Positions 8,833-42,329 of a stretch of 64,000 nucleotides of DNA are shown here, in pieces. This DNA is from Patescibacteria group bacterium (GTDB lineage: Bacteria; Patescibacteriota; Patescibacteriia; JAXHNJ01). The DNA lies in the NCBI GenBank assembly GCA_034520665.1, contig JAXHNJ010000002.1, positions 352,660 through 416,659 on the forward strand, read 5' to 3'. Below the pieces are notes generated by a model. That model saw only the letters and a list, made by a program, of their open reading frames with translations. It ran no database searches and was not told where the DNA came from. Position 1 is the stretch's first letter; the number at the start of each line of letters is the position of its first letter. Made by a program: the position numbers and the translations under genes.

Positions 8833-8860
8833 GTAGATGCTAGTCGCGACTAACGCCTAC
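8833..8860. repeat. Imperfect palindrome GTAGATGCTAGTCGCGACTAACGCCTAC, copy 2 of a palindromic element
   Basis: Related to the perfect 28-nt palindrome at 11733..11760 (shared core TAGTCGCGACTA). Lies in the divergent intergenic region upstream of ORF 8916. Confidence 0.4.
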
Positions 8861-8915: not shown

Positions 8916-9341
8916 ATGAAAAAAGAAAAAAAAGTCCTGGTTTTCGGCACTTTTGACCATCTTCACCCCGGTCACCAGTATTTTTTAAAAAAAGCCAAAA
9001 GTTTAGGAAATAGGTTAATGGTAGTATTGGCTCGAGATAAAAATGTCAAGAAAATCAAAGGGCAAAAGCCGAGCCAAAATGAAAAGCAAAGACTAATAAA
9101 AATTAAAAATCTTGATTTTGTTGATCAGGTCTTTTTAGGTCAAGATAATTTAAATCATAAATATGATATTATCAAAAAAATTAAGCCGGATATTATTGCT
9201 TTAGGTTATGATCAGAAAAATTTTACTCAGGATTTACCAAAATATATAAACAATAAAACAAAAATAATTAGACTTAAGGCATTTGAGCCTGGTAAATATA
9301 AATCATCAATTATTAAACAAAGAAAAAACGGCGACTTATAA
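8916..9341 (+). CDS. Cytidylyltransferase-like nucleotidyltransferase (HxGH family; FAD synthetase RibL-like or glycerol-3-P cytidylyltransferase-like)
   Basis: FGTFDHLHPGHQYFL carries the (T/H)xGH nucleotidyltransferase signature. 141 aa. Confidence 0.6.
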   Translation: MKKEKKVLVFGTFDHLHPGHQYFLKKAKSLGNRLMVVLARDKNVKKIKGQKPSQNEKQRLIKIKNLDFVDQVFLGQDNLNHKYDIIKKIKPDIIALGYDQKNFTQDLPKYINNKTKIIRLKAFEPGKYKSSIIKQRKNGDL

Positions 9342-11022: not shown

Positions 11023-11289
11023 ATGCCGATTAAAAAAGCAGCCATTAAAGCCATTAAACAAGACAAGAAAAGAAAAAAAAGAAACCAGAAAGTAAAAAAT
11101 AATATAAAAGAATTGCGCACAGCTTTTCGCAAAGCCATAGAATCAAAAAATAAAAAAGAATCTGAAAAGATTTCCAAAAAACTCATTAAAGCTTATGATA
11201 AAGCCAGTCAGCATAAAAGTATCAAAAAAAATACAGCTGCTCGGAAAAAATCACGGCTAATGAAGAAGTTGAACAAACTTAAATCTTAA
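11023..11289 (+). CDS. rpsT: 30S ribosomal protein S20
   Basis: MPIKKAAIKAIKQDKKRKKRN...KNTAARKKSRLMKKLNKL matches the S20 family. The ORF-track start at 10960 is an upstream extension that runs through the promoter; true start is the internal ATG at 11023. Confidence 0.9.
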   Translation: MPIKKAAIKAIKQDKKRKKRNQKVKNNIKELRTAFRKAIESKNKKESEKISKKLIKAYDKASQHKSIKKNTAARKKSRLMKKLNKLKS

Positions 11290-11310
11290 ATAATAAATAT
11301 TTATTTAAAT

Positions 11311-11345
11311 AAAAAGTGGGTTATTTAATTATAAGCCACTTTTTA
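11311..11345 (+). terminator. rpsT rho-independent terminator candidate (AAAAAGUGG...CCACUUUUU)
   Basis: Inverted repeat followed by a T run directly after the rpsT stop. Confidence 0.4.
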
Positions 11346-11935
11346 GTTATTGGGCCAAGCGACGAGTAAGAGCGTGATTTTTTGAGCCTAGAATATAAAC
11401 TAAAACACTGCCCAATGACCATACCAACCGCTCCGCCCGACATCTTTTTAAGGCTAATAGTGCGGCGATTCAAAAACTTTATTCCATTTCGACCCCCTCG
11501 ACTCTCTCACTTTATTCGTTCGCTCGGGGCAGGCTGAGTGGAGAAATCTCACTAAAATATTCATAAGGATCTCTCCTTTGTATAGTGGCGTAAAGAAAAT
11601 AAACCGGACTAAAGTCCGTATGAAAATAATATTTTCTTTTTTCTTAGCCACTTCAGATGTGTACTAATAAAATAGAAAATAAGGTTATGCTGACGCTTTC
11701 CTCCTTTTACCACTTCGTCCGATCATTAAAGAGTAGATGTCAGTCGCGACTGACATCTACGGATAGCAGGCCGCATGGAGAAATCCTGTTAAATTAACCA
11801 TAAGGTTCTCTCCACTGCATCGCGCTCAGCGCGACTGCGGTCGAGATGGTTTGAGTGATTATAATAGCGTAGGCTCGCGTCCCTTGCGCCTTGCAAAACT
11901 AGACAGCCAAGTCTGCCCTTTTCTTTTTAAATACA
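11346..11935. other. ~590-bp GC-richer non-coding block with structured repeats; candidate ncRNA gene(s) or element remnant
   Basis: Lies between the stops of convergent rpsT and holA, so it is neither a promoter nor a 5'UTR. Contains two 37-nt hairpins, GGAGAAATC...CATAAGG(A/T)TCTCTCC, at 11540-11576 and 11777-11813. Contains a perfect 28-nt palindrome at 11733-11760. Has short segments resembling RNase P RNA motifs (GAGTAAGAGCG; CATAAGG), but no complete rnpB or ssrA architecture could be reconstructed by eye. Confidence 0.3.
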
Positions 11936-11953
11936 AGAACAAACCCTATTAAC

Positions 11954-12946
11954 CTAAGAATTACACACCTTAAAAATAAACAAGTCAAAAAGCACTCTCG
12001 GTTCAGCCTGGCTTGTTTTTATTTTCAGGTCAATATCTAGAAGCTGCTGGTAAATATTTTTTAATTCTTTAAATTTAAAATTTCTGGTTTGAACTAAAGA
12101 TTTTTTAGCTACGAAAGGGTGTAAATTTAAACGATTGGCAATGGTATAATAATTGCTTTCTTCTTGGGAAACTTCTTTAACCTGAACTAAAATTCTAAAA
12201 AGACGGCTAAGCATAGCCAGTAGATAAAGCTCATTTTCACCGCTCATAATCTGATCCCTGATTAGTTTTAAAGCTAATTTTTTCTTTTTTTCAGCCAAGG
12301 CATCAGTCAATTTAAAAATATCCGTGTCATACTTAGTTTTTACAAATAAACTAACATCATCTTTATTAATAACTTTTCCTTTTTTATAATTAATTAATTT
12401 TTCAATTTCATTATTCATCTGCCATAAATCCTGGCCAACTAAAGCCAGTAATAAATCCAGAGCTACTGGTTCAATTCGTCCGCCCCTTTTTCTAATTTCT
12501 TTTTCAGTCCAGTTTTTTAGCCTGTACCCTTTGAGTAAACCAAAATCTTCAACTTTAGCTTCTTTAGCCAGATATTTTTGTAGAGGCGAAACTTTCTTAC
12601 GGCCTCTTTTTTTCTTACCGCGGCCCTGATTTTCGATATCACCTTCCCAAAAAATTAAAACTTCATCCTGGCTTAATTTATTTTCTTTTAAATATTTAAC
12701 TACTTCTTTTTGTATTTTCTCTTTTTTATTTTTGCCCATCAAATCTTCTATAACCACTAACTTCTTTTTTGAAAGCAGTCCTTTATTGCCTAATTTATTT
12801 CTTAAATCTTCCAACTTTAATTTTTCACCGGCTAAAACTTCAATATTAAAACCTTGAGGGTCGTATTTTTTCTTAAACCCTTCTCTGTAAAATTTTAGTT
12901 TTTGCCGGGAGCGAAAAGTATCGGCTCCGTAAAGAAAAATTATCAT
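11954..12946 (-). CDS. holA: DNA polymerase III delta subunit
   Basis: N-terminus MIIFLYGADTFRSRQKL... is a typical HolA start. 330 aa. The holA-rpsT neighbourhood is conserved in many bacteria. Confidence 0.7.
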   Translation of the reverse strand: MIIFLYGADTFRSRQKLKFYREGFKKKYDPQGFNIEVLAGEKLKLEDLRNKLGNKGLLSKKKLVVIEDLMGKNKKEKIQKEVVKYLKENKLSQDEVLIFWEGDIENQGRGKKKRGRKKVSPLQKYLAKEAKVEDFGLLKGYRLKNWTEKEIRKRGGRIEPVALDLLLALVGQDLWQMNNEIEKLINYKKGKVINKDDVSLFVKTKYDTDIFKLTDALAEKKKKLALKLIRDQIMSGENELYLLAMLSRLFRILVQVKEVSQEESNYYTIANRLNLHPFVAKKSLVQTRNFKFKELKNIYQQLLDIDLKIKTSQAEPRVLFDLFIFKVCNS

Positions 12947-21675: not shown

Positions 21676-21740
21676 TAGTTTAATCCTCGTTAAGCCACCG
21701 TATTTATTTTTTAGTTGTGGTTATTGCAGCTAGTAAGGTT

Positions 21741-22148
21741 TTAGGTTTTAGTTTTTGTAATTCTTTTATTATTAAAATTATCCCAAGCCTTGGCCAAGGT
21801 AAATGTTTGCCGAGCAATTTTATCATATTCTTCGATTAAATTATTACATAAATTTTTATCAAAATTATAAAAATCTTTAAGCTGTGATAAGCCAACAATA
21901 GTCTCATTAATTTCAGCTAAGGCATCATCAAGATATTTCTGAAAACCGGCCTTTTGGTGTTTTTTAGCATAACCTTCGGCAATAAGACGTGGTATAGCTT
22001 TACAAGATCTTCTTAACTGAGATGACAAATCATTTCTCTCTATCGAAGGAATTAATGGCAATATTTTATCAAATACAATAACACAAGTTTTATAACTTGA
22101 TCTATAAATTTCTAAATCATTGAAACTTTTTATTTTTCTATAAACCAT
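21741..22148 (-). CDS. Four-helix-bundle protein (23S rRNA intervening-sequence protein family)
   Basis: ...DLEIYRSSYKTCVIVFD...LSSQLRRSCKAIPRLIAEGYAKKHQKAGFQKYLDDALAEINET matches the family pattern. The ORF-track start at 22190 is probably an N-terminal extension; the internal ATG is at 22148. Confidence 0.65.
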   Translation of the reverse strand: MVYRKIKSFNDLEIYRSSYKTCVIVFDKILPLIPSIERNDLSSQLRRSCKAIPRLIAEGYAKKHQKAGFQKYLDDALAEINETIVGLSQLKDFYNFDKNLCNNLIEEYDKIARQTFTLAKAWDNFNNKRITKTKT

Positions 22149-22348
22149 AACTACAACCTTACTAGCCGCCATAACTAAAACTAAATTCAATAAAAAAATT
22201 TGGTGACTCCTTTAGCGGAGCCACCAAAATCTGTCTACAAGTATAGAATATATTTTTCGGCTAAATATGTCAAGTTGTAAATCCACAAATTATCAACTTC
22301 TATTATAGTATGACCTTAAGCTCCGTCAAAGGACACAAGTTTTGCCCT

Positions 22349-33350: not shown

Positions 33351-34892
33351 TTAATTTATTTTTATTTTATAAAAATAAAATCCATTTTTTTCAAATAGTA
33401 ATTTTAAATCTTTATTTTCTTTTATTTTATATAGATTTTTCAAATTTGGTCTAAGATATGGTATTTTTTCATTGTTAAAAATAAGATATTTTATTTCTCT
33501 GTTTCTAGCAAATTCAATTATATCTTCATACTCATTGCTTGGCAAAATATAATTTATTCCTTGAGCCCAATAAGCTATTATTCTTGCATTCGTTAATATT
33601 TTATGGCCAGAGCCATACTTTTCCTTAAAAAATTGACTCATTTCTTTTATTTCTGTATCTCTGAACAAGGAAAAAAATCTGAATTGATAACCATCTTCTA
33701 TAGCAATAACAAACTGAAAAGACAAAAAAACTAATAAAATACTCAATATAACTATCCTCTTCTTTTTAAAGGATAAACTTTGATATAATCTCACTATACC
33801 TACGGCCACAATCATTAATATAATTGGAGTTAGCGGAAAGTAATAGCGGTAATAGACTTTTCCTGAATAATATATAAAAAGGAAAAAGGGTATCCAGCTA
33901 CCTAAAAAATAAAGTTTGTGCAAAATATATTTTTTCTTTTTTGAAAAATAAAAAGCAAAAACTATAAAAATTATCTGAAAAATAAAGTAACAGATAACAT
34001 AGGCTATATTATGAGGTAAATTTCTGAAAAAATTATTAATATAAATAATTATATACGATTTTTTTGGTTTTTCCATTTCTAGCTGGTTACTATTATAATC
34101 TGTATTTTCTTCATTCAACCCAAAGAAAATGATATTTTTTTCAAAATAAGAACTTTTGCTAGAAGAAACCGCGTAATCCTGCTGACCGGTAATTACAAAC
34201 TGGCCTTTTTCTTTATATAAATAAATCAAATAAGGAGAAACAACCATAACCACACCAATTATTAATAAGGTTAAACTAATAAATAATTTCTTTAATCTAA
34301 TTCTTTTATAATAAATATAATTAATAAAAAGCCATAAGATTATAACCGGCAAAAAACTTAAACCAACAATTCTTACATAATAAGAAAAACCAATTAAAAT
34401 ACCTAAGATCAGATACCAAAAAGTATTTTTCTCTTTATTTAAAAGAAGCCAACTTAAAAGAACAATACTAATAAAGAGAAAAGTAAATAAAGCTTCGGTC
34501 CAGGCCGCACCAGAATACCAAATAACATAAGGGTTTAAAATAAATAAAATAATAGATAGAATAGCTATTTTAAAATTAAAAAGTTTTTTAGCCAGAAAAT
34601 AAATAATAATAATTGATAAAAAAGTACTAATTAAGGAAACAATCTGGCTGGCCAGTTCAATATTATTTAAATAAAAATTATAAACATAAATCATAAAAGG
34701 AAAACCAGGCTGTATCAAACTATTTAACCGGGTAGTAGTATTAATCTTTAAACTTTTATCTAGGTTTTCTGCTAATTTGAAATATAAGGCTGAGTCACTA
34801 CTAGAAACCACTGAAGAAGAAAAAGTAAAAAATAAAACAAGAGCTAATAACAATATACCTCCCACAAAATATATTTCTTTTTTTCTAGACAT
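33351..34892 (-). CDS. GT-C-fold membrane glycosyltransferase (ArnT/PMT-like; GT39/GT83-like), tandem paralog 1
   Basis: 513 aa with 11 or more TMs. N-terminal ...SDSALYFKLAENL... periplasmic-loop motif typical of polyprenyl-P-sugar-dependent GT-C enzymes. Confidence 0.55.
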   Translation of the reverse strand: MSRKKEIYFVGGILLLALVLFFTFSSSVVSSSDSALYFKLAENLDKSLKINTTTRLNSLIQPGFPFMIYVYNFYLNNIELASQIVSLISTFLSIIIIYFLAKKLFNFKIAILSIILFILNPYVIWYSGAAWTEALFTFLFISIVLLSWLLLNKEKNTFWYLILGILIGFSYYVRIVGLSFLPVIILWLFINYIYYKRIRLKKLFISLTLLIIGVVMVVSPYLIYLYKEKGQFVITGQQDYAVSSSKSSYFEKNIIFFGLNEENTDYNSNQLEMEKPKKSYIIIYINNFFRNLPHNIAYVICYFIFQIIFIVFAFYFSKKKKYILHKLYFLGSWIPFFLFIYYSGKVYYRYYFPLTPIILMIVAVGIVRLYQSLSFKKKRIVILSILLVFLSFQFVIAIEDGYQFRFFSLFRDTEIKEMSQFFKEKYGSGHKILTNARIIAYWAQGINYILPSNEYEDIIEFARNREIKYLIFNNEKIPYLRPNLKNLYKIKENKDLKLLFEKNGFYFYKIKIN

Positions 34893-35020: not shown

Positions 35021-36565
35021 TTAATTTATTTTTATTTTATAAAAATAAAATCCATTTTTTTCAAATAGTAATTTTAAATCTTTATTTTCTTTTATTTTAT
35101 ATAGATTTTCTAATCTAGGCCTTATCCAAGAAATACGATTTTTATCAAAAATAAGATATTTTATTTCTCTGTTTCTAGCAAATTCAATTATATCTTCATA
35201 CTCATTGCTTGGCAAAATATAATTTATTCCTTGAGCCCAATAAGCTATTATTCTTGCATTCGTTAATATTTTATGGCCAGAGCCATACTTTTCCTTAAAA
35301 AATTGACTCATTTCTTTTATTTCTGTATCTCTGAACAAGGAAAAAAATCTGAATTGATAACCATCTTCTATAGCAATAACAAACTGAAAAGACAAAAAAA
35401 CTAATAAAATACTCAATATAACTATCCTCTTCTTTTTAAAGGATAAACTTTGATATAATCTCACTATACCTACGGCCACAATCATTAATATAATTGGAGT
35501 TAGCGGAAAGTAATAGCGGTAATAGACTTTTCCTGAATAATATATAAAAAGGAAAAAGGGTATCCAGCTACCTAAAAAATAAAGTTTGTGCAAAATATAT
35601 TTTTTCTTTTTTGAAAAATAAAAAGCAAAAACTATAAAAATTATCTGAAAAATAAAGTAACAGATAACATAGGCTATATTATGAGGTAAATTTCTGAAAA
35701 AATTATTAATATAAATAATTATATACGATTTTTTTGGTTTTTCCATTTCTAGCTGGTTACTATTATAATCTGTATTTTCTTCATTCAACCCAAAGAAAAT
35801 GATATTTTTTTCAAAATAAGAACTTTTGCTAGAAGAAACCGCGTAATCCTGCTGACCGGTAATTACAAACTGGCCTTTTTCTTTATATAAATAAATCAAA
35901 TAAGGAGAAACAACCATAACCACACCAATTATTAATAAGGTTAAACTAATAAATAATTTCTTTAATCTAATTCTTTTATAATAAATATAATTAATAAAAA
36001 GCCATAAGATTATAACCGGCAAAAAACTTAAACCAACAATTCTTACATAATAAGAAAAACCAATTAAAATACCTAAAATTAGATACCAAAAAGTATTTTT
36101 TTCTTTATTTAAAAGAAGCCAACTTAAAAAAACAATACTAATAAAGAGAAAAGTAAATAAAGCTTCGGTCCAGGCGGCACCAGAACACCAAATAACATAA
36201 GGGTTTAAAATAAATAAAATAATAGATAGAATAGCTATTTTAAAATTAAAAAGTTTTTTAGCCAGAAAATAAATAATTATTATTGATAAAAAAGTGCTAA
36301 TCAAGGAAACAAGCTGGCTGGCCAGTTCAATATTATTTAAATAAAAATTATAAACATAAATCATAAAGGAATAACCAGGTTGTACCAGGCTATGCAAACT
36401 AGTAGTAGTATTAATCTTTAAACTTTTATCTAGGTTTTCTGCTAATTTGAAATATAAGGCTGAGTCACTGGTAGAAACTACTGAGGAAGAAAAAGTAAAA
36501 AATAAAACAAGAGCTAATAACAATATACCTCCAAGAAAATATATTTCCTTTTTCTTTCCCATCAT
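35021..36565 (-). CDS. GT-C-fold membrane glycosyltransferase (ArnT/PMT-like), tandem paralog 2
   Basis: 514 aa. More than 95% identical to paralog 1, except for the N-terminal residues and a ~15-aa C-terminal patch (DKNRISWIRPRLENL vs NNEKIPYLRPNLKNL). Confidence 0.55.
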   Translation of the reverse strand: MMGKKKEIYFLGGILLLALVLFFTFSSSVVSTSDSALYFKLAENLDKSLKINTTTSLHSLVQPGYSFMIYVYNFYLNNIELASQLVSLISTFLSIIIIYFLAKKLFNFKIAILSIILFILNPYVIWCSGAAWTEALFTFLFISIVFLSWLLLNKEKNTFWYLILGILIGFSYYVRIVGLSFLPVIILWLFINYIYYKRIRLKKLFISLTLLIIGVVMVVSPYLIYLYKEKGQFVITGQQDYAVSSSKSSYFEKNIIFFGLNEENTDYNSNQLEMEKPKKSYIIIYINNFFRNLPHNIAYVICYFIFQIIFIVFAFYFSKKKKYILHKLYFLGSWIPFFLFIYYSGKVYYRYYFPLTPIILMIVAVGIVRLYQSLSFKKKRIVILSILLVFLSFQFVIAIEDGYQFRFFSLFRDTEIKEMSQFFKEKYGSGHKILTNARIIAYWAQGINYILPSNEYEDIIEFARNREIKYLIFDKNRISWIRPRLENLYKIKENKDLKLLFEKNGFYFYKIKIN

Positions 36566-37126: not shown

Positions 37127-39513
37127 AACCAATACAAGAGAAATAAGGAGTTATCCACAAAAATATGGAACAAAAAAACCTTAATCTTAAACAAAAAAGC
37201 GGCTAATTTGCGCCTAATTATTTTTTAAGCGTAAAAGTCGCTTGAAAGCGGCTTTTTTGTTTCTTACATTAACTTCTTTAATAAGAACTTTGACAATTAA
37301 ATAATGGTAACAATAAAGAGCATCTACTTAAAATCAACTAAAAAATTAACTTAAATTCATATTTTTAAGCGAGTAAATCAGGATCTAAAAAAGAGCATAT
37401 GGTGGATGCCTCGACATTAAAAGGCGAAGAAGGACGTAGCAGCCTGCGATAAGCCTCGGTCAGGTGGCAAGCAACCTTTGATCCGGGGATTTCCGAATGG
37501 GGAAACCCGTCTGTCTTTTTAAGGACAGTCATCTATGTCTGAATCTATAGGACATAAGAAGTGCACCTGGGGAATTGAAACATCTTAGTACCCAGTGGAA
37601 AAGAAAAAAAAGGGTTAGCTCATAGCTAATGACGGTTTTTGCCGTCATCTGCTATTTGCTAATATATTCCCAGAGTAGTGGCGAGCGAAATGGGAAAAGT
37701 CCAAACTTGTGAAGTTTTTCCGCTTTTGGCGGGAAAGGGGTCATAAGCCCTTATACTTTACGGGGGTAGTGAGATAATTACTTTTAAATCAGCTTATGAC
37801 TGATTGGGGATAGCGTATGTAGTAGACTTTCCTAAAGTTTATTAGGAAATACTATTACTATTTCCTAGCTAAATCACCTGGAAAGGTGAACCAAAGAAGG
37901 TGATAGTCCTGTAAGCAAAAGGAAATAAACTTCCTCGTGATTATTCTCGAGTACCACGAGACTCGTGAAATCCCGTGGGAATCTGGCATGACTATTTTGC
38001 CAAGACTAAATACTTTTAATGATCGATAGCGAACTAGTACCGTGAGGGAAAGGTGAAAAGCACCCCGGTGAGGGGAATGAAATAGTATCTGAAACCATAT
38101 GCTTACAAGCAGTCGGAGTCCCGCCTTTGGTGTGGATGACGGCGTGCCTATTGAAGAATGAGCCAACGACTTAGTTTTATACAGTTTTCGATTAAGCCCT
38201 TCAAGGGCGAAATCAAAGTGAAAGCAAGCGTGAAAACGCGACCATTAGTTAATTAGTGGTTAGTTATTTTATATAATTAATTCACTAATTTTCTAAAAGA
38301 TTGTATGAACTAGACCCGAAGCCAAGTGAGCTATCCATGGCCAGGATGAACTCTTGAGAAATCAAGGGGGAGGTCCGAACCCACTAGCCGTGCAACGCTA
38401 GGGGATGAGCTGTGGATAGAGGTGAAATGCTAATCGAACTTGGCAATAGCTGGTTCTCCTCGAAATAGCTTTAGGGCTAGCCTTATAAATACTTATATGG
38501 AGGTAGAGCACTGAATGGGTGCGGATGGCGTAAGCCTACCACATCCAACCAAACTCCGAATTCCATGTATTTAATTATAGGAGTCAGACCATGGGGGCTA
38601 AGCTCCATCGGTCAAAAGGGAAACAGCCCAGACCACCATCTAAGGTCCCTAAATTTAGGCTAAGTGTAAAGGCAGTATCGCAACTGAAACAACTAGGAGG
38701 TTGGCTTAGAAGCAGCCATCCTTTAAAGAAAGCGTAACAGCTCACTAGTCAAGTTACTTTGCGCCAAAAATTTATAGGGGCTCAAGCCTAATACCGAAGA
38801 TGTGGTCCCCCACTTATTTATAGGTGGGGGAGGTAGAGGAGCATTCCACGTTTACTGAAGTCAATTTGTTAAAATTGATGGAAAACGTGGAAGTGAGAAT
38901 GTTGGCATAAGTAGCAAAAATCAGGGTGAGAATCCCTGACACCGCAAGCTTAAGGTTTCCTGGGCAACGTGAATCGACCCAGGGTTAGTCGGTCCTAAGG
39001 CGAGGCCGAAAGGCGTAGTCGATGGACAGCTGGTTAATATTCCAGCACCGTCTATTTTGCTTGCAACTAATTGACGCATCCTCAAAGTCTGAGCGCATTT
39101 TGGCTATATGCGTTCCTTCACTTAATTTAAGTGGGGGAGAAGAAAAAACCTCCGGGTGGATTCGATTCAGGTGGAGCGGGTGCCAAGAAAAGATTAGCCG
39201 TGTCTAACTTAATAGATGACCGTACCAAAACCAACACAGGTGAGCGGGCAGTTAATCTGCTAAGGTGTACGAGAGAACCCTCGTTTAGGAACTCGGCAAA
39301 ACAGTGGCCGTAACTTCGGGATAAGGCCTTCCCCCACTTGCTTGCAAGTGTGGGGACGCAGTTAATGATCTCAAGCGACTGTTTATCAAAAACACAGGTC
39401 CCTGCTAAACCGTAAGGTGATGTATAGGGGCTGATGCCTGGCCAGTGTCAGAACGTTAAGGGGATAGGTGCAAGCCTTGAACTGAAGCGCTGATGAACGC
39501 CGGCGATAACTAT

Positions 39514-40250
39514 AAGTGACGATTGTAGTTATAAAATTTGGCTATATGCGGGAAACCCTCCTTCATTTGAAGTACTCGCCTTTTACTAAAAGGCAGTAAC
39601 AATCTTCAAAGGACATAATTGTCAGGAGGCAATCCGCAGGAAAGACTCTTGGTAAGAAAGGATTAAACTATGGTAAAAAATAAATGGTTAAAAAATGTAC
39701 CAATAAATATTGGTAATTATATTGCTGGATTTGTAGACGGTGAAGGAAGCTTCAATGTTTCATTAAGAAAAAGAAAAGATCATAAAATGAAATGGCAAGT
39801 TGTATTAACCTTTAATGTATCTCAAAAAGAAAGAGCTATATTGTCTTTACTTAAACGTTATTTAAGTTGTGGCAGACTACAAACTAGAAAAGATGGAGTA
39901 TCTTATTATGTAGTTTCAAATCCATTATCTATTAAAGAAAAAATTATTCCTTTTTTTAGTAGATTTCCCTTCTTATCACAAAGAAAAAGAAGAAACTTCT
40001 CAATTTTTAAAAGAATTACTAATTTAGTCATTAAAAAGGAGCACTTAAATAGCTCGGGACTAGAAAAAATAATTCAACTCAGAGAAAAATTAAATCCCGG
40101 ACGTGGAAGAAAAAGAAAATATTCATTAAAAGACTATAAACAAAACCAAGAGAATCCTCAGAGACTATACGCCAAACCGCGATCTTTTCGTAAAGAAAAA
40201 AGCGGATGAGATAGTCCGATCTCATAGGTAACTATGAGCTAACAATAAAG
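39514..40250 (+). mobile_element. Group I intron in 23S rRNA at E. coli-equivalent position ~L1917 (helix 69), carrying a LAGLIDADG ORF
   Basis: Exon junction reconstructs ...GGCGAUAACUAU|AAUCGUCCUAAGGUAGCG with a compensatory H69 stem. The 5' exon ends in U and the intron ends in G. A P1-like pairing exists between exon ATAACTAT and intron GTAGTTAT. Confidence 0.7.
39670..40209 (+). CDS. LAGLIDADG homing endonuclease (single-motif, homodimer type), intron-encoded
   Basis: NYIAGFVDGEGSF motif. 179 aa. Embedded in the 23S intron. Confidence 0.85.
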   Translation: MVKNKWLKNVPINIGNYIAGFVDGEGSFNVSLRKRKDHKMKWQVVLTFNVSQKERAILSLLKRYLSCGRLQTRKDGVSYYVVSNPLSIKEKIIPFFSRFPFLSQRKRRNFSIFKRITNLVIKKEHLNSSGLEKIIQLREKLNPGRGRKRKYSLKDYKQNQENPQRLYAKPRSFRKEKSG

Positions 40251-40254
40251 AATC

Positions 40255-40317
<63 letters not shown>

Positions 40318-40826
40318 GAGAACTCTCTCAACGAGGGACTCGGTGAAATTGCATTACGAGTAAAGATGCTCGTTACCCACGGCCGGACGAAAAGACCCCG
40401 TGAAGCTTTACTACAACTTGGCATTGAGTTAAGTTTGTGTTTGCTCAGTATAGGTGGGAGACTTTGAAGTCCCAATTTCGGTTGGGACTGAGTCGCCATG
40501 TGAAATACCACCCTAACGTAAATTTAGTTCTAATTTTTGACCATGAAACTGGTCAGGAAAACAGTGTCTGGTGGGTAGTTTGACTGGGGCGGTCGCCTCC
40601 CAAATTGTAACGGAGGCGCTTACAAAGGTTGGCTAGGCTGGGATGGAAATCCAGCCGATAGTGTAAAGGCATAAGCCAGCTTTACTGCAAGACCTACAAG
40701 TCGCGCAGTTACGAAAGTAGAACTTAGTGATCCGACTCTCGATTATAGGATCGGAGAAGCTCATCGGATAAAAGTTACTCCGGGGATAACAGGCTTATCG
40801 GTTCCAAGAGTTCATATCGACGAACC

Positions 40827-40867
<41 letters not shown>

Positions 40868-40898
40868 AAGAAGCTCCCAAGGGTTTGGCTGTTCGCCA

Positions 40899-40942
<44 letters not shown>

Positions 40943-41765
40943 AAAATATAAATAACGTTCTGTCTCTTTTCGTCCATAAAATTAAAATGATCGTGCTGTC
41001 TATAAATCTGGCTATATGCTGGAAACTCTGGCATCCTCAAATAAGGAGAATAGAGGATTGAAGAATCTCACACTACGTGTTATAATATACGTGAAAATGT
41101 GTTGAGTGCAGACAACCAGCAGGGAAGATTTATAGGGAAAAATATGTTAAATCCAAATTACATTTCTGGCTTTGTAGATGGAGAAGGCAGTTTTCATGTC
41201 GCCATTTACAAAGATAATCGTATGAAACATAATATAAAAATAATACCGGAATTTCATATTAGTCAACGAAAAGATAGTAAAATGATTCTGGAAAAAATAA
41301 AAGATTATCTTCAATGTGGTTATATCAAGAAAAATCATGCTAAAAATAAAAATGATTTGACATATGTTTATGTAGTTAGAAATCGAAAAGACCTTCTAGA
41401 AAAAATAATTCCTTTCTTTGAAAAATACACACTAAAAACAGTGAAGAAAAAAGACTATAACATATTCGCTAAAATAGTAGAACTTATGAATAATAATAGA
41501 CACAGTAAAAAAAGTGGACTTAGAAAAATTATTAAACTTTCTTACTCTATGAATAGAAAAGGTAAATACAGAAGATCAAAAATCTCCCTATAAAAACCCT
41601 CAGAGACTATACGCCGGACTCCAACTATAAAATGGAGAAGATATAGTCCGAACTCTATGGCGACATAGAGAGATAAGTAGAAATAACTTATCCCGTAACC
41701 ATAAACCCATTTTTGAAATTTGAATTTTGGAATTTGGAGTTTGTTGTTACGTAGTAACAATTCTG
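40943..41765 (+). mobile_element. Group I intron in 23S rRNA at E. coli-equivalent position ~L2593, carrying a LAGLIDADG ORF
   Basis: Exon junction reconstructs ...CGUCGUGAGACAGU|UCGGUCUCCUAUCCGCCGUGGGCG. The 5' exon ends in U and the intron ends in G. Shares a ~25-nt core (ATYTGGCTATATGCKGGAAACYCT) with intron 1. Confidence 0.7.
41099..41593 (+). CDS. LAGLIDADG homing endonuclease (single-motif), intron-encoded
   Basis: NYISGFVDGEGSF motif. 164 aa. Inside the second 23S intron. Confidence 0.85.
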   Translation: MLSADNQQGRFIGKNMLNPNYISGFVDGEGSFHVAIYKDNRMKHNIKIIPEFHISQRKDSKMILEKIKDYLQCGYIKKNHAKNKNDLTYVYVVRNRKDLLEKIIPFFEKYTLKTVKKKDYNIFAKIVELMNNNRHSKKSGLRKIIKLSYSMNRKGKYRRSKISL

Positions 41766-42211
41766 TCGGTCTCCTATCCGCCGTGGGCGTTTAGAAACTT
41801 GAGAAGATTCTTCCCTAGTACGAGAGGACCGGGAAGAACGAACCTCTAGTCTATGAGCTGTTCCGCCAGGAGCATAGTTCAGTAGCTACGTTCGGAAAGG
41901 ATAAACGCTGAAAGCATATAAGCGTGAAGCCTCCTTCAAGATTAGGTTTCCTTATTTAGTCTCCTTCAAGATAAGAAGGTTAATAGGTGGCCGGTGTAAG
42001 ATCCGTAAGGATTTGAGCCAAGCCATACTAACAGACAATTATTCCTGATTTACTCACTTAAAAATTATGAATTCATTAAAAAATAAATGAAAAAATACAA
42101 AGCCACTTTGAAATTACTCTTAATCTTTATTGTTTTAACCATTTTTTTAGAAATACTACTTTATTTTTCTCCAGCCACTATAGCGGCTAATTAAAATTAA
42201 GAGAGGTAGTA

Positions 42212-42329
42212 TCCTGGTGATACTAGCGACTGTGTTACACCCCTTTCCATTCCGAACAGGGCCGTTAAGACAGTCAGCGCCGATGATACTTGGGGTTTAT
42301 CCCTGAGGGAAAGTAGGTCATCGCCAGGA
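42212..42329 (+). rRNA. rrf: 5S ribosomal RNA
   Basis: Helix I CCUGGUGA/UCAUCGCCAGG. Conserved CCGAACAGGGCCGTTAAG and AGTAGGTCATCGCCAGG. An extended precursor stem GAGAGGTAGTA/ATTGCCTCTC flanks it. T-run terminator at 42341. Confidence 0.85.

Follow-up and report, generated by a model that had tools for sequence, protein, structure and literature searches.

GTAG REPs are stem-loops with a stem of 5-13 bp, a loop of 2-20 nt, and a terminal unpaired GTAG, and genomes carry tens to thousands of such units together with an associated RAYT (Y1/HUH) transposase (Di Nocera et al. 2013, PMC3733652). REPs occupy convergent or unidirectional spacers, form dimers of subtypes that fold into larger structures, gather in clusters, and differ between strains (PMC3733652). 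Our full-text literature search found no description of dispersed repeats in Patescibacteria (CPR). Here, we consider a block of gene-free DNA between rpsT and holA in a Patescibacteria genome, within a contiguous stretch of 64 kb that we call the window (GC 0.333). The block is probably a non-coding mosaic of at least three short dispersed repeat families, two of them hairpin-forming, together with one AT-rich hairpin, similar to REP, BIME, and MITE sequences and located in a permissive convergent spacer. The basis for this reading is that the modules occur at 95-100% identity in an unrelated gene context, are recombined in near-identical strains, and are absent from most orthologous junctions. 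They also display conserved ends, variable interiors, inverted subtype pairs, lone or truncated arms, and mixed families. The block is thus an ordinary kind of feature. A first-pass annotation had proposed either noncoding RNA or the remnant of an element; the element half of that proposal stands, since modules recur elsewhere and vary between strains, while the half that pointed to a known RNA falls with the empty Rfam searches.

The rpsT-holA spacer and its modules

The two genes converge on a spacer of 664 bp (11290-11953). Its largest ORF in a six-frame translation is 65 aa and stops interrupt all frames, in agreement with the first-pass description of an ORF-free block of approximately 590 bp. 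The spacer is also, as had been stated, richer in GC than its surroundings, at 0.40 (0.38-0.50 in 200-nt windows) against 0.25-0.31 in the flanks and 0.333 in the window. Intergenic gaps were said to be normally very short in this genome, which is only partly the case: the window contains 22 gaps of at least 100 bp, two of which (813 and 756 bp) exceed this spacer, although it is the longest gap between convergent genes. It had further been argued that the block cannot be a UTR, but this does not follow, as a bidirectional terminator adjoins rpsT at 11306-11349. Because the terminator is still beside rpsT, the block sits between the holA stop codon and the terminator, and it is plausibly the 3' UTR of holA. 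All of the sequence features named in the first pass were confirmed in place. The features of the region are listed below, with L numbers for the loci and contigs used in the comparison.

11023-11289, plus strand: rpsT (Pfam Ribosomal_S20p)
11306-11349, both strands: bidirectional terminator-type hairpin AAAAAGTGGGTTAT...ATAAGCCACTTTTT, inverted repeat I1, with 19-nt arms that are 89% complementary
11397-11449, minus strand: K motif GGGCGGAGCGGTTGGTATGGTCATTGGGCAGTGTTTTAG, which aligns with L004, L030, and L031
11484-11548, plus strand: complete type-1 arm, with a-end CCATTTCGAC (11484-11493), a variable GC-rich interior, and b-end GGAGAAATC (11540-11548)
11540-11576, unstranded: hairpin 1, in which an AT-rich loop separates the type-1 b-end from an orphan type-2 b-end GATCTCTCC (11568-11576)
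11584-11652, unstranded: long imperfect AT-rich hairpin AGTGGC...GCCACT with tip CGGACTTTAGTCCG (11605-11618), from sequence reading and MFE folds
11733-11760, unstranded: perfect 28-nt palindrome GTAGATGTCAGTCGCGACTGACATCTAC with 14+14 arms, followed by TCTTT on the minus strand
11766-11785, plus strand: 5'-truncated type-1 arm GCAGGCCGCATGGAGAAATC, a duplicate of 11529-11548 (direct repeat D1)
11777-11813, unstranded: hairpin 2, made of a type-1 b-end, the loop TGTTAAATTAACCATAA, and a type-2 b-end
11805-11849, minus strand: complete type-2 arm, with a-end CCATCTCGAC (11849-11840) and b-end GGAGAGAAC (11813-11805)
11899-11918, minus strand: weak hairpin GGGCAGACTTGGCTGTCTAG followed by TTTTG, right after the holA stop, from sequence reading and the minus-strand fold
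11954-12946, minus strand: holA (Pfam DNA_pol3_delta_C)
8833-8860, unstranded: second, imperfect copy of the palindrome GTAGATGCTAGTCGCGACTAACGCCTAC, outside the block and between divergent genes

The arms fall into two subtypes that pair in inverted orientation. Type 1 runs from CCATTTCGAC to GGAGAAATC, and type 2 runs from CCATCTCGAC to GGAGAGAWC, followed by a CTTATGG loop; in our motif table, diagnostic bases (T/A versus C/G) separate the subtypes in every copy. Type-1 copies were found in the window (11484-11548, plus strand), twice in L028, and twice in L029, and type-2 copies in the window (11849-11805, minus strand), L025, and L028. The type-2 arm of the window, which is conserved in L025 and L028, has an internal GC stem-loop at approximately 11815-11839. 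In a facing pair of type-1 and type-2 arms, the 37-nt hairpin is formed by the b-ends and a 10-bp closing helix by the a-ends. In the block, pairing is possible between the type-2 a-end (11849-11840) and the type-1 a-end (11484-11493), which would close a domain of approximately 366 nt (11484-11849). The outer arms of this domain are complete and its hairpin part is duplicated, with an orphan type-2 b-end and a truncated type-1 arm. The two paralogous 37-nt hairpins, 237 nt apart, noticed by the first-pass annotation are these duplicates, and they lie within a 55-nt direct repeat that is 75% identical. The approximately 190 nt between them hold the long AT-rich hairpin and the GTAG...CTAC palindrome.

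Within the 64-kb window, the arm modules are confined to the block, and the only 20-mers of the block that occur a second time are those of the palindrome, read on its two strands. The AT-rich hairpin at 11584-11652 gave a terminator-like match on the minus strand in the terminator scan, and BLAST and nhmmer found no second copy of it in the window or the relative loci. The weak hairpin at 11899-11918 may be a leaky holA terminator, although the terminator scan did not call it. The hairpin beside rpsT at 11306-11349 is likely the ancestral terminator of holA and rpsT, and two relatives with a short spacer (L002 and L027) carry one such terminator hairpin at the junction.

The junction in relatives and dispersed copies of the modules

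In a HolA protein search, all of the relatives were Patescibacteria MAGs. A holA scan over one genome per GTDB species gave 22 Patescibacteria loci, every one of which keeps the convergent holA and rpsT arrangement, as do 24 of the 24 relatives with a contig spanning the junction. The spacer measures approximately 10-25 bp by coordinates in 14 of the 22 GTDB loci and 10-70 bp in most relatives, where it holds one bidirectional terminator. For example, it is 24 bp in the closest species representative (L002, 71% HolA identity) and 60 bp in L027 (66% HolA identity). Most relatives are therefore without the block at this junction, an absence that the first-pass annotation had named as evidence against its own candidate. 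In the remainder, the same site holds insertions unrelated to the block. Low-complexity inverted repeats of the AAATCC type are inserted in L003, L026, and L004; in L004 they come with an ORF of 200 aa. The insert in L016 and L023 is what we take, by eye, to be a GxxExxY-like ORF flanked by ATTACGAATTACGAA inverted repeats, and L017 and L018 have other unassigned ORFs, one in each with motifs that we presume, again by eye, to be HD-domain-like. Unrelated insertions alongside short spacers in most relatives indicate that the junction is an insertion hotspot and that its ancestral state is a short spacer.

The nearest relative found, L025 (88% HolA and 83% holA DNA identity), is the only one with a related block at the junction, and its contig ends 389 nt into that block. 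Between L025 and the window, the modules alone align: the a-end (CCATCTCGACC) is identical at 12 of 12 positions, and the hairpin (b-end plus loop) is approximately 85% identical. By comparison, third-codon positions of holA are 66% identical between the two. L025 has a diverged version of the palindrome, a different arm interior, and two additional GC hairpins, and the rest of its block could not be aligned. Conserved ends next to an unalignable rest suggest that the module ends are constrained or homogenised, while everything else turns over quickly.

Copies of the modules also occur away from the junction. A metagenome scan by hairpin pattern returned one contig, L028; the same scan missed the L025 contig even though the pattern fits it, and the collection is thus incomplete for this lineage. 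In L028, three modules of the block surround a gene pair encoding UDP-glucose 4-epimerase and UDP-glucose dehydrogenase (UGDH), and the window has no homologue of this epimerase. The palindrome with its TCTTT is identical over 34 nt to L028 197-230 (100%), the J module (type-1 arm interior plus a-end) is 96% identical over 51 nt to L028 1265-1314 and to L029 1-50, and hairpin 2, which is also common to L025, is 95% identical over 38 nt to L028 1377-1414. L029 is the L028 locus from another sample and is 96.6% identical to it. In the epimerase-UGDH spacer of L029, the palindrome is replaced by a lone type-1 arm, CCATTTCGACC-GAGGTCCCGTAGGGACC-GAGCGGAGAAATCC, joined to the AT-rich leader that is also found ahead of the epimerase gene; the arm and the adjoining leader are duplicated upstream of two neighbouring genes. 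Differing modules at 96.6% identity indicate that modules are shuffled between near-identical strains.

L028, L029, and L025 may represent one closely related lineage, and the high identity of the modules could partly reflect shared ancestry plus selection. When we looked for the L028 epimerase in the genome of the window, no cluster above 72% identity came from the source contig, and the search gave no second locus in that genome. L025 and L029 come from the same sample. In sample SRR26473340, both Logan contigs that carry the holA and rpsT of the window end inside modules, at 11787 and 11510, which fits the presence of extra copies or variants elsewhere in that sample. Pattern scans of viral contigs found no further copies. 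When four module profiles were run with nhmmer against the window and 27-30 loci, arm, hairpin, and palindrome copies outside the window were recovered only in L025, L028, and L029. The confinement of these modules to three contigs other than that of the window is an observation contrary to the mosaic reading, as is the restriction of the arms to one block, and of the palindrome to two copies, within the 64 kb.

The K motif is distributed differently. Its nhmmer profile, run on the same loci, found copies only in L004, L030, and L031 besides the window. It lies just after holA in L004 and just after the gene upstream of an epimerase in L030 and L031, and in all of these it directly follows a stop codon. 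The copy in the window scored E=2e-10, as one of the four sequences from which the profile was built. A weak resemblance (nhmmer E=0.27) was seen between the K motif and the flank of the 23S-rRNA-IVP gene of the window.

Readings as RNA, peptide, or protein-binding site

The first-pass annotation had pointed to short strings resembling RNase P RNA landmarks and had hinted at RNase P RNA or tmRNA. We searched 4227 Rfam families with cmscan, using the gathering score for the whole window and E<=10 with permissive filters for positions 11200-12050 (851 nt). At the gathering score, the whole window yielded only 23S rRNA, 5S rRNA, and three tRNAs, which bears out the remark that neither rnpB nor ssrA is visible in it. 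The block itself gave only noise at E<=10, and RNase P, tmRNA, 6S, SRP, OLE, ROOL, and raiA were all unmatched, so that the covariance-model search suggested by the first-pass annotation found no catalogued RNA. The noise consisted of an rli60 hit with 23.9 bits, where the gathering score is 60, and a mir-1255 hit on the hairpin of the terminator. ARAGORN reported three tRNAs and no tmRNA in the window. GOLLD, HEARO, and group I and II introns had no Rfam match in the window, nor in L025, L028, and L029, and the modules of those three contigs had no Rfam match at E<=1. The landmark strings are short matches without covariance-model support, and given that the Rfam and ARAGORN searches were empty, we regard them as chance. 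On this evidence, the probability is negligible that a catalogued housekeeping RNA, whether RNase P RNA, tmRNA, or another, lies in the block in divergent form. A few string matches and the absence of rnpB and ssrA from the 64-kb window, which is approximately 9% of the genome, speak for such an RNA. Against it stand not only the empty searches but also the distribution of the block, which is missing at this locus in relatives with 71% and 66% HolA identity and in more distant ones, and parts of which recur beside an epimerase gene. Compared with bacterial RNase P RNA and tmRNA, the block is similarly GC-enriched, gene-free, and rich in hairpins, with a few matching strings, but it has no covariance-model match, is not conserved at its locus, and is modular and dispersed. 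We advise against annotating the block as rnpB, ssrA, or any other housekeeping RNA; rnpB and ssrA are to be looked for in other parts of the genome.

A new, lineage-restricted structured RNA, in the form of either a multi-copy arm-loop-arm small RNA of approximately 100 nt or the whole domain of approximately 366 nt (11484-11849), is a different proposal, and an unlikely one. GC is enriched over an AT-rich background, as it is in the rRNA and tRNAs of the window. The compact unit of approximately 100 nt in L028 folds at -40.3 and -43.7 kcal/mol on its two strands (z approximately -4.2 for both), the whole block folds with z scores of -2.2 on the plus and -2.9 on the minus strand, and the helix-forming ends are conserved above the level of synonymous sites. 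However, RNAalifold on four copies found compensatory change in 0 of 12 hairpin pairs, the copies being too similar to decide the matter, and the two strands of the compact unit fold equally well. The window and its 88% relative have wholly different arm interiors and linkers, lone arms exist without a partner, and the block is absent from the junction in most relatives. Nor is there a strong promoter-like site in the block, where the best score was 9/12. The wobble positions do not help to choose a strand. Each helix has one non-Watson-Crick position, which reads as G.U on one strand and as A.C on the opposite strand. The bias of the a helix is the reverse of that of the b helix, and neither strand stands out as the RNA. 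The case for an RNA in the holA sense, suggested by the G.U of the b helix on the minus strand, is thus cancelled by the a helix. As a separate observation contrary to the mosaic reading, the raised GC and the strong folding (z -4.2 for the compact unit) would suit a small RNA gene equally well.

A combined proposal is that the arm-loop-arm unit of approximately 100 nt, with its conserved paired ends, variable interiors, and GGAGAGAWCCUUAUGG as the invariant loop region, is a mobile structured element of Patescibacteria, not described before, that functions as RNA as well. We consider this quite unlikely. Such a unit might be a small RNA or a module for 3'-end processing or stability that moves between operons. 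In that case, the lone type-1 arms that lie immediately upstream of two genes in L028 and L029 might even bring promoter or leader sequence along.

The block might instead be a decayed gene or encode small peptides. In the latter case, GGAGAGAWCCTTATG of the type-2 arm would be an SD and ATG partly buried in a hairpin, in the manner of a type I toxin. The SD-like GGAG and the ATG are invariant in 4 of 4 copies, ORFs of 14, 33, and 36 aa begin at this signal (the fourth is cut by the contig end), and genuine accessory genes do lie at the junction in other lineages. Still, a coding role is highly improbable. The peptides are fully divergent beyond approximately nine residues, are of unequal length, and, reading their sequences by eye, do not look hydrophobic as type I toxins do. 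An alignment of the four SD+ATG peptides, led by one of 45 aa, had no match at E<=10 in 5.8 billion proteins, the four largest ORFs of the block have no Pfam match, and tblastx found no similarity between the block and the genes inserted at the junction in relatives. A pseudogene was rejected on the grounds of stops in all frames, the lack of Pfam matches, and the empty tblastx comparison.

The palindrome deserves separate treatment. The first-pass annotation had reported a perfect 28-nt palindrome, which we located at 11733-11760; its pattern was absent from all 100 shuffled versions of the window. It folds into a 12-bp stem with a 4-nt loop (-18.2 kcal/mol, z -6.0). There are two copies in the 64 kb and one each in L025 and L028, and GTAG pairs with CTAC in all of them (11733, 8833, L028, and L025). 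Taken alone, the palindrome could be a site for a protein, either the operator of a dimeric regulator or a dif-style recombinase site of 11+6+11 nt. Its dyad symmetry is perfect, and Xer sites have an 11-6-11 layout that equals its 28-nt length. At 8833-8860, the second copy lies immediately before a promoter-like -35/-10 pair, TAGACA..TATTAT, upstream of a CTP_transf_like gene (8916-9341). The palindrome is also present in L028 and absent from L029 at the same locus. Even so, a protein-binding site is very unlikely to be the explanation. The copies lie in three unrelated contexts (the spacer of a convergent pair, the promoter region of a divergent pair, and a spacer within an operon), and the L025 copy is asymmetric in its centre and one arm while its hairpin is kept. 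We see no likeness between the palindrome and the conserved XerD arm of dif. GC skew has the same sign on both sides of the block, with no change that would mark a terminus. A dif or terminus site was rejected because there is more than one copy of the palindrome and the GC skew does not switch sign.

Proposed spread of the modules and comparison with known repeat systems

We consequently return to the mosaic of dispersed repeats. Its core is a composite inverted-arm element in which type-1 and type-2 arms stand face to face. In the window, this element has its hairpin part in duplicate, and the separate K motif lies next to the likely ancestral terminator. The modules would spread at the level of DNA, either through a transposase supplied in trans or by recombination between copies. 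No transposase, including Y1/RAYT, was found among ten unassigned ORFs scanned in the window, which speaks against the mosaic reading, as does the lack of a definable target-site duplication. Like clusters of REP/BIME and MITE sequences, the modules may be tolerated because the site is downstream of both genes. They are probably transcribed within the holA 3' UTR as far as the terminator at 11306-11349, and their stable hairpins may incidentally slow 3' exonucleases or reinforce the termination of convergent transcription.

For one lineage, the two arm subtypes, the GTAG...CTAC palindrome, and the K motif thus co-occur, at a junction that appears to be a recurrent insertion hotspot. The modules break short-read assemblies, and they could serve as strain markers or lead to the mobilising enzyme.

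Several known kinds of repeat can be compared with the block. In the manner of REP/BIME sequences, which are palindromic repeats tagged with GTAG or CGTC, its short GC-rich stem-loops are intergenic, downstream of genes, and between convergent ORFs; its subtypes pair in inverted orientation, cluster in mosaics, and differ by strain; and its palindrome begins with GTAG. The 12-bp stem and 4-nt loop of the palindrome fit the size of a REP stem-loop. However, the GTAG is paired with CTAC in every copy and is not an unpaired tag, and we therefore file the block as REP-like in habit but outside the GTAG superfamily. Unlike the REP/BIME sequences of Proteobacteria, the block has a tiny demonstrated copy number (in 64 kb and a few contigs) and no RAYT among the ten ORFs. 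The host is a Patescibacterium with a reduced genome, and the sequences are unrelated to any described family.

The likeness to MITEs and to the Correia-type mosaics of Neisseria lies in the compact unit of approximately 100 nt, with 10-nt terminal inverted repeats CCATYTCGAC and GTCGARATGG and a variable interior. These repeats, CCATTTCGAC and GTCGAGATGG, match at 9 of 10 positions and form the ends of both the window element and unit B of L028. Differing gene contexts, presence or absence by strain (at a few loci), and interleaved repeat families are further points in common. In contrast to MITEs, the block has no definable target-site duplication, no known parent IS, and lone arms, and some of the spread, such as that of the arm and leader in L029, resembles local duplication or recombination. 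The flanks of type-1 a-ends vary by copy, while CTCA(C/A)A always precedes type-2 a-ends and looks internal to the element.

The K motif recalls a third kind of system, the low-complexity inverted-repeat flanks of 23S-rRNA-IVP (four-helix-bundle) and GxxExxY-like gene cassettes. It shares with the IVP flanks of the window GGTTAT.. and sequence of the GGTTTTAG type, and cassettes of this sort lie at the holA-rpsT junction in L003, L004, L016, L023, and L026. The block differs from them in holding no such gene and only one K-type flank, and the similarity is weak (E=0.27).

The holA/rpsT junction and gaps in its assembly

Across Patescibacteria, the convergent holA/rpsT junction recurs as a hotspot for insertions. 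The contents of the spacer that follows holA vary by lineage (L003, L004, L016, L017, L018, L020, L023 and L026, all loci of relatives at this junction), and the ORFs among them were assigned by eye, without Pfam:

AAATCC-type inverted-repeat cassettes, in some lineages
GxxExxY-like genes with ATTACGAA repeats as flanks
a small membrane-protein-like ORF
other ORFs, given no family by eye, in some lineages
GC-rich hairpins, in some lineages

The two Logan contigs of sample SRR26473340 that carry the holA and rpsT of the window, L001 and L024, both stop within the hairpin-repeat block (at 11787 and 11510), and positions 11511-11786 were therefore left unassembled in that sample. These breaks suggest either that copies of the repeats exist elsewhere or that the strains are heterogeneous.

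Block elements at other sites

In four organisms, unrelated genes have a motif of approximately 45 nt (GGGCGTGGCGGYYRGTATGGYC..GG..GGTTTTAG) immediately 3′ of their stop codon; in L004 and L030, AAATCC-type low-complexity repeats come next:

L004 4001-4057
L030 514-571 and L031 422-480, each after a gene upstream of an epimerase
window 11397-11449

The palindrome of the block also recurs:

8833-8860, imperfect second copy of the 28-nt palindrome (GTAGATGCTAGTCGCGACTAACGCCTAC), between divergent genes

A promoter-like site, TAGACA-N-TATTAT, immediately adjoins this copy and is located approximately 55 nt upstream of a CTP_transf_like gene (8916-9341), for which the copy could be an operator. 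AT-rich segments of the block gave BLAST matches that repeat, at a constant offset of 1670 nt, in a pair of ORFs that appear to be tandem paralogues:

33351-34892, minus strand, and its neighbor 35021-36565, minus strand, ORFs of 513 and 514 aa

Other insertions, a possible cassette, and hairpins

The 23S rRNA in the 37379-42329 region has several insertions and measures 3619 nt, versus 2925 nt for the model. No 16S rRNA lies upstream of it within the window, and the Rfam search of the window gave no group I intron match at or above the gathering score. Two endonuclease ORFs are found here:

39670-40209, LAGLIDADG endonuclease, within the 23S rRNA
41099-41593, second LAGLIDADG endonuclease, in the 1.2-kb gap preceding the 5S rRNA

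A further gene is located outside any rRNA:

21741-22190, minus strand, 23S rRNA-intervening-sequence protein (four-helix bundle, PF05635)

Low-complexity inverted repeats of approximately 45 nt lie on both sides (about 21700-21745 and 22150-22195), with GTTGTGGTTATTGCAGCTAGTAAGGTTTTAGGTTTTAG on one and its complement on the other, and because of these flanks, the gene and its repeats look like a cassette.

On L028, a metagenome contig with block modules around a UDP-glucose 4-epimerase gene, one more stretch was found:

L028 61-175, hairpins of type GTCATGCTGAGCCTGACGAAG and GTCAAGCTCAGGGTGAC

Sequences of similar style are present in the L003 and L020 spacers, and the L028 hairpins resemble short repeats that are common throughout metagenomic intergenic DNA.
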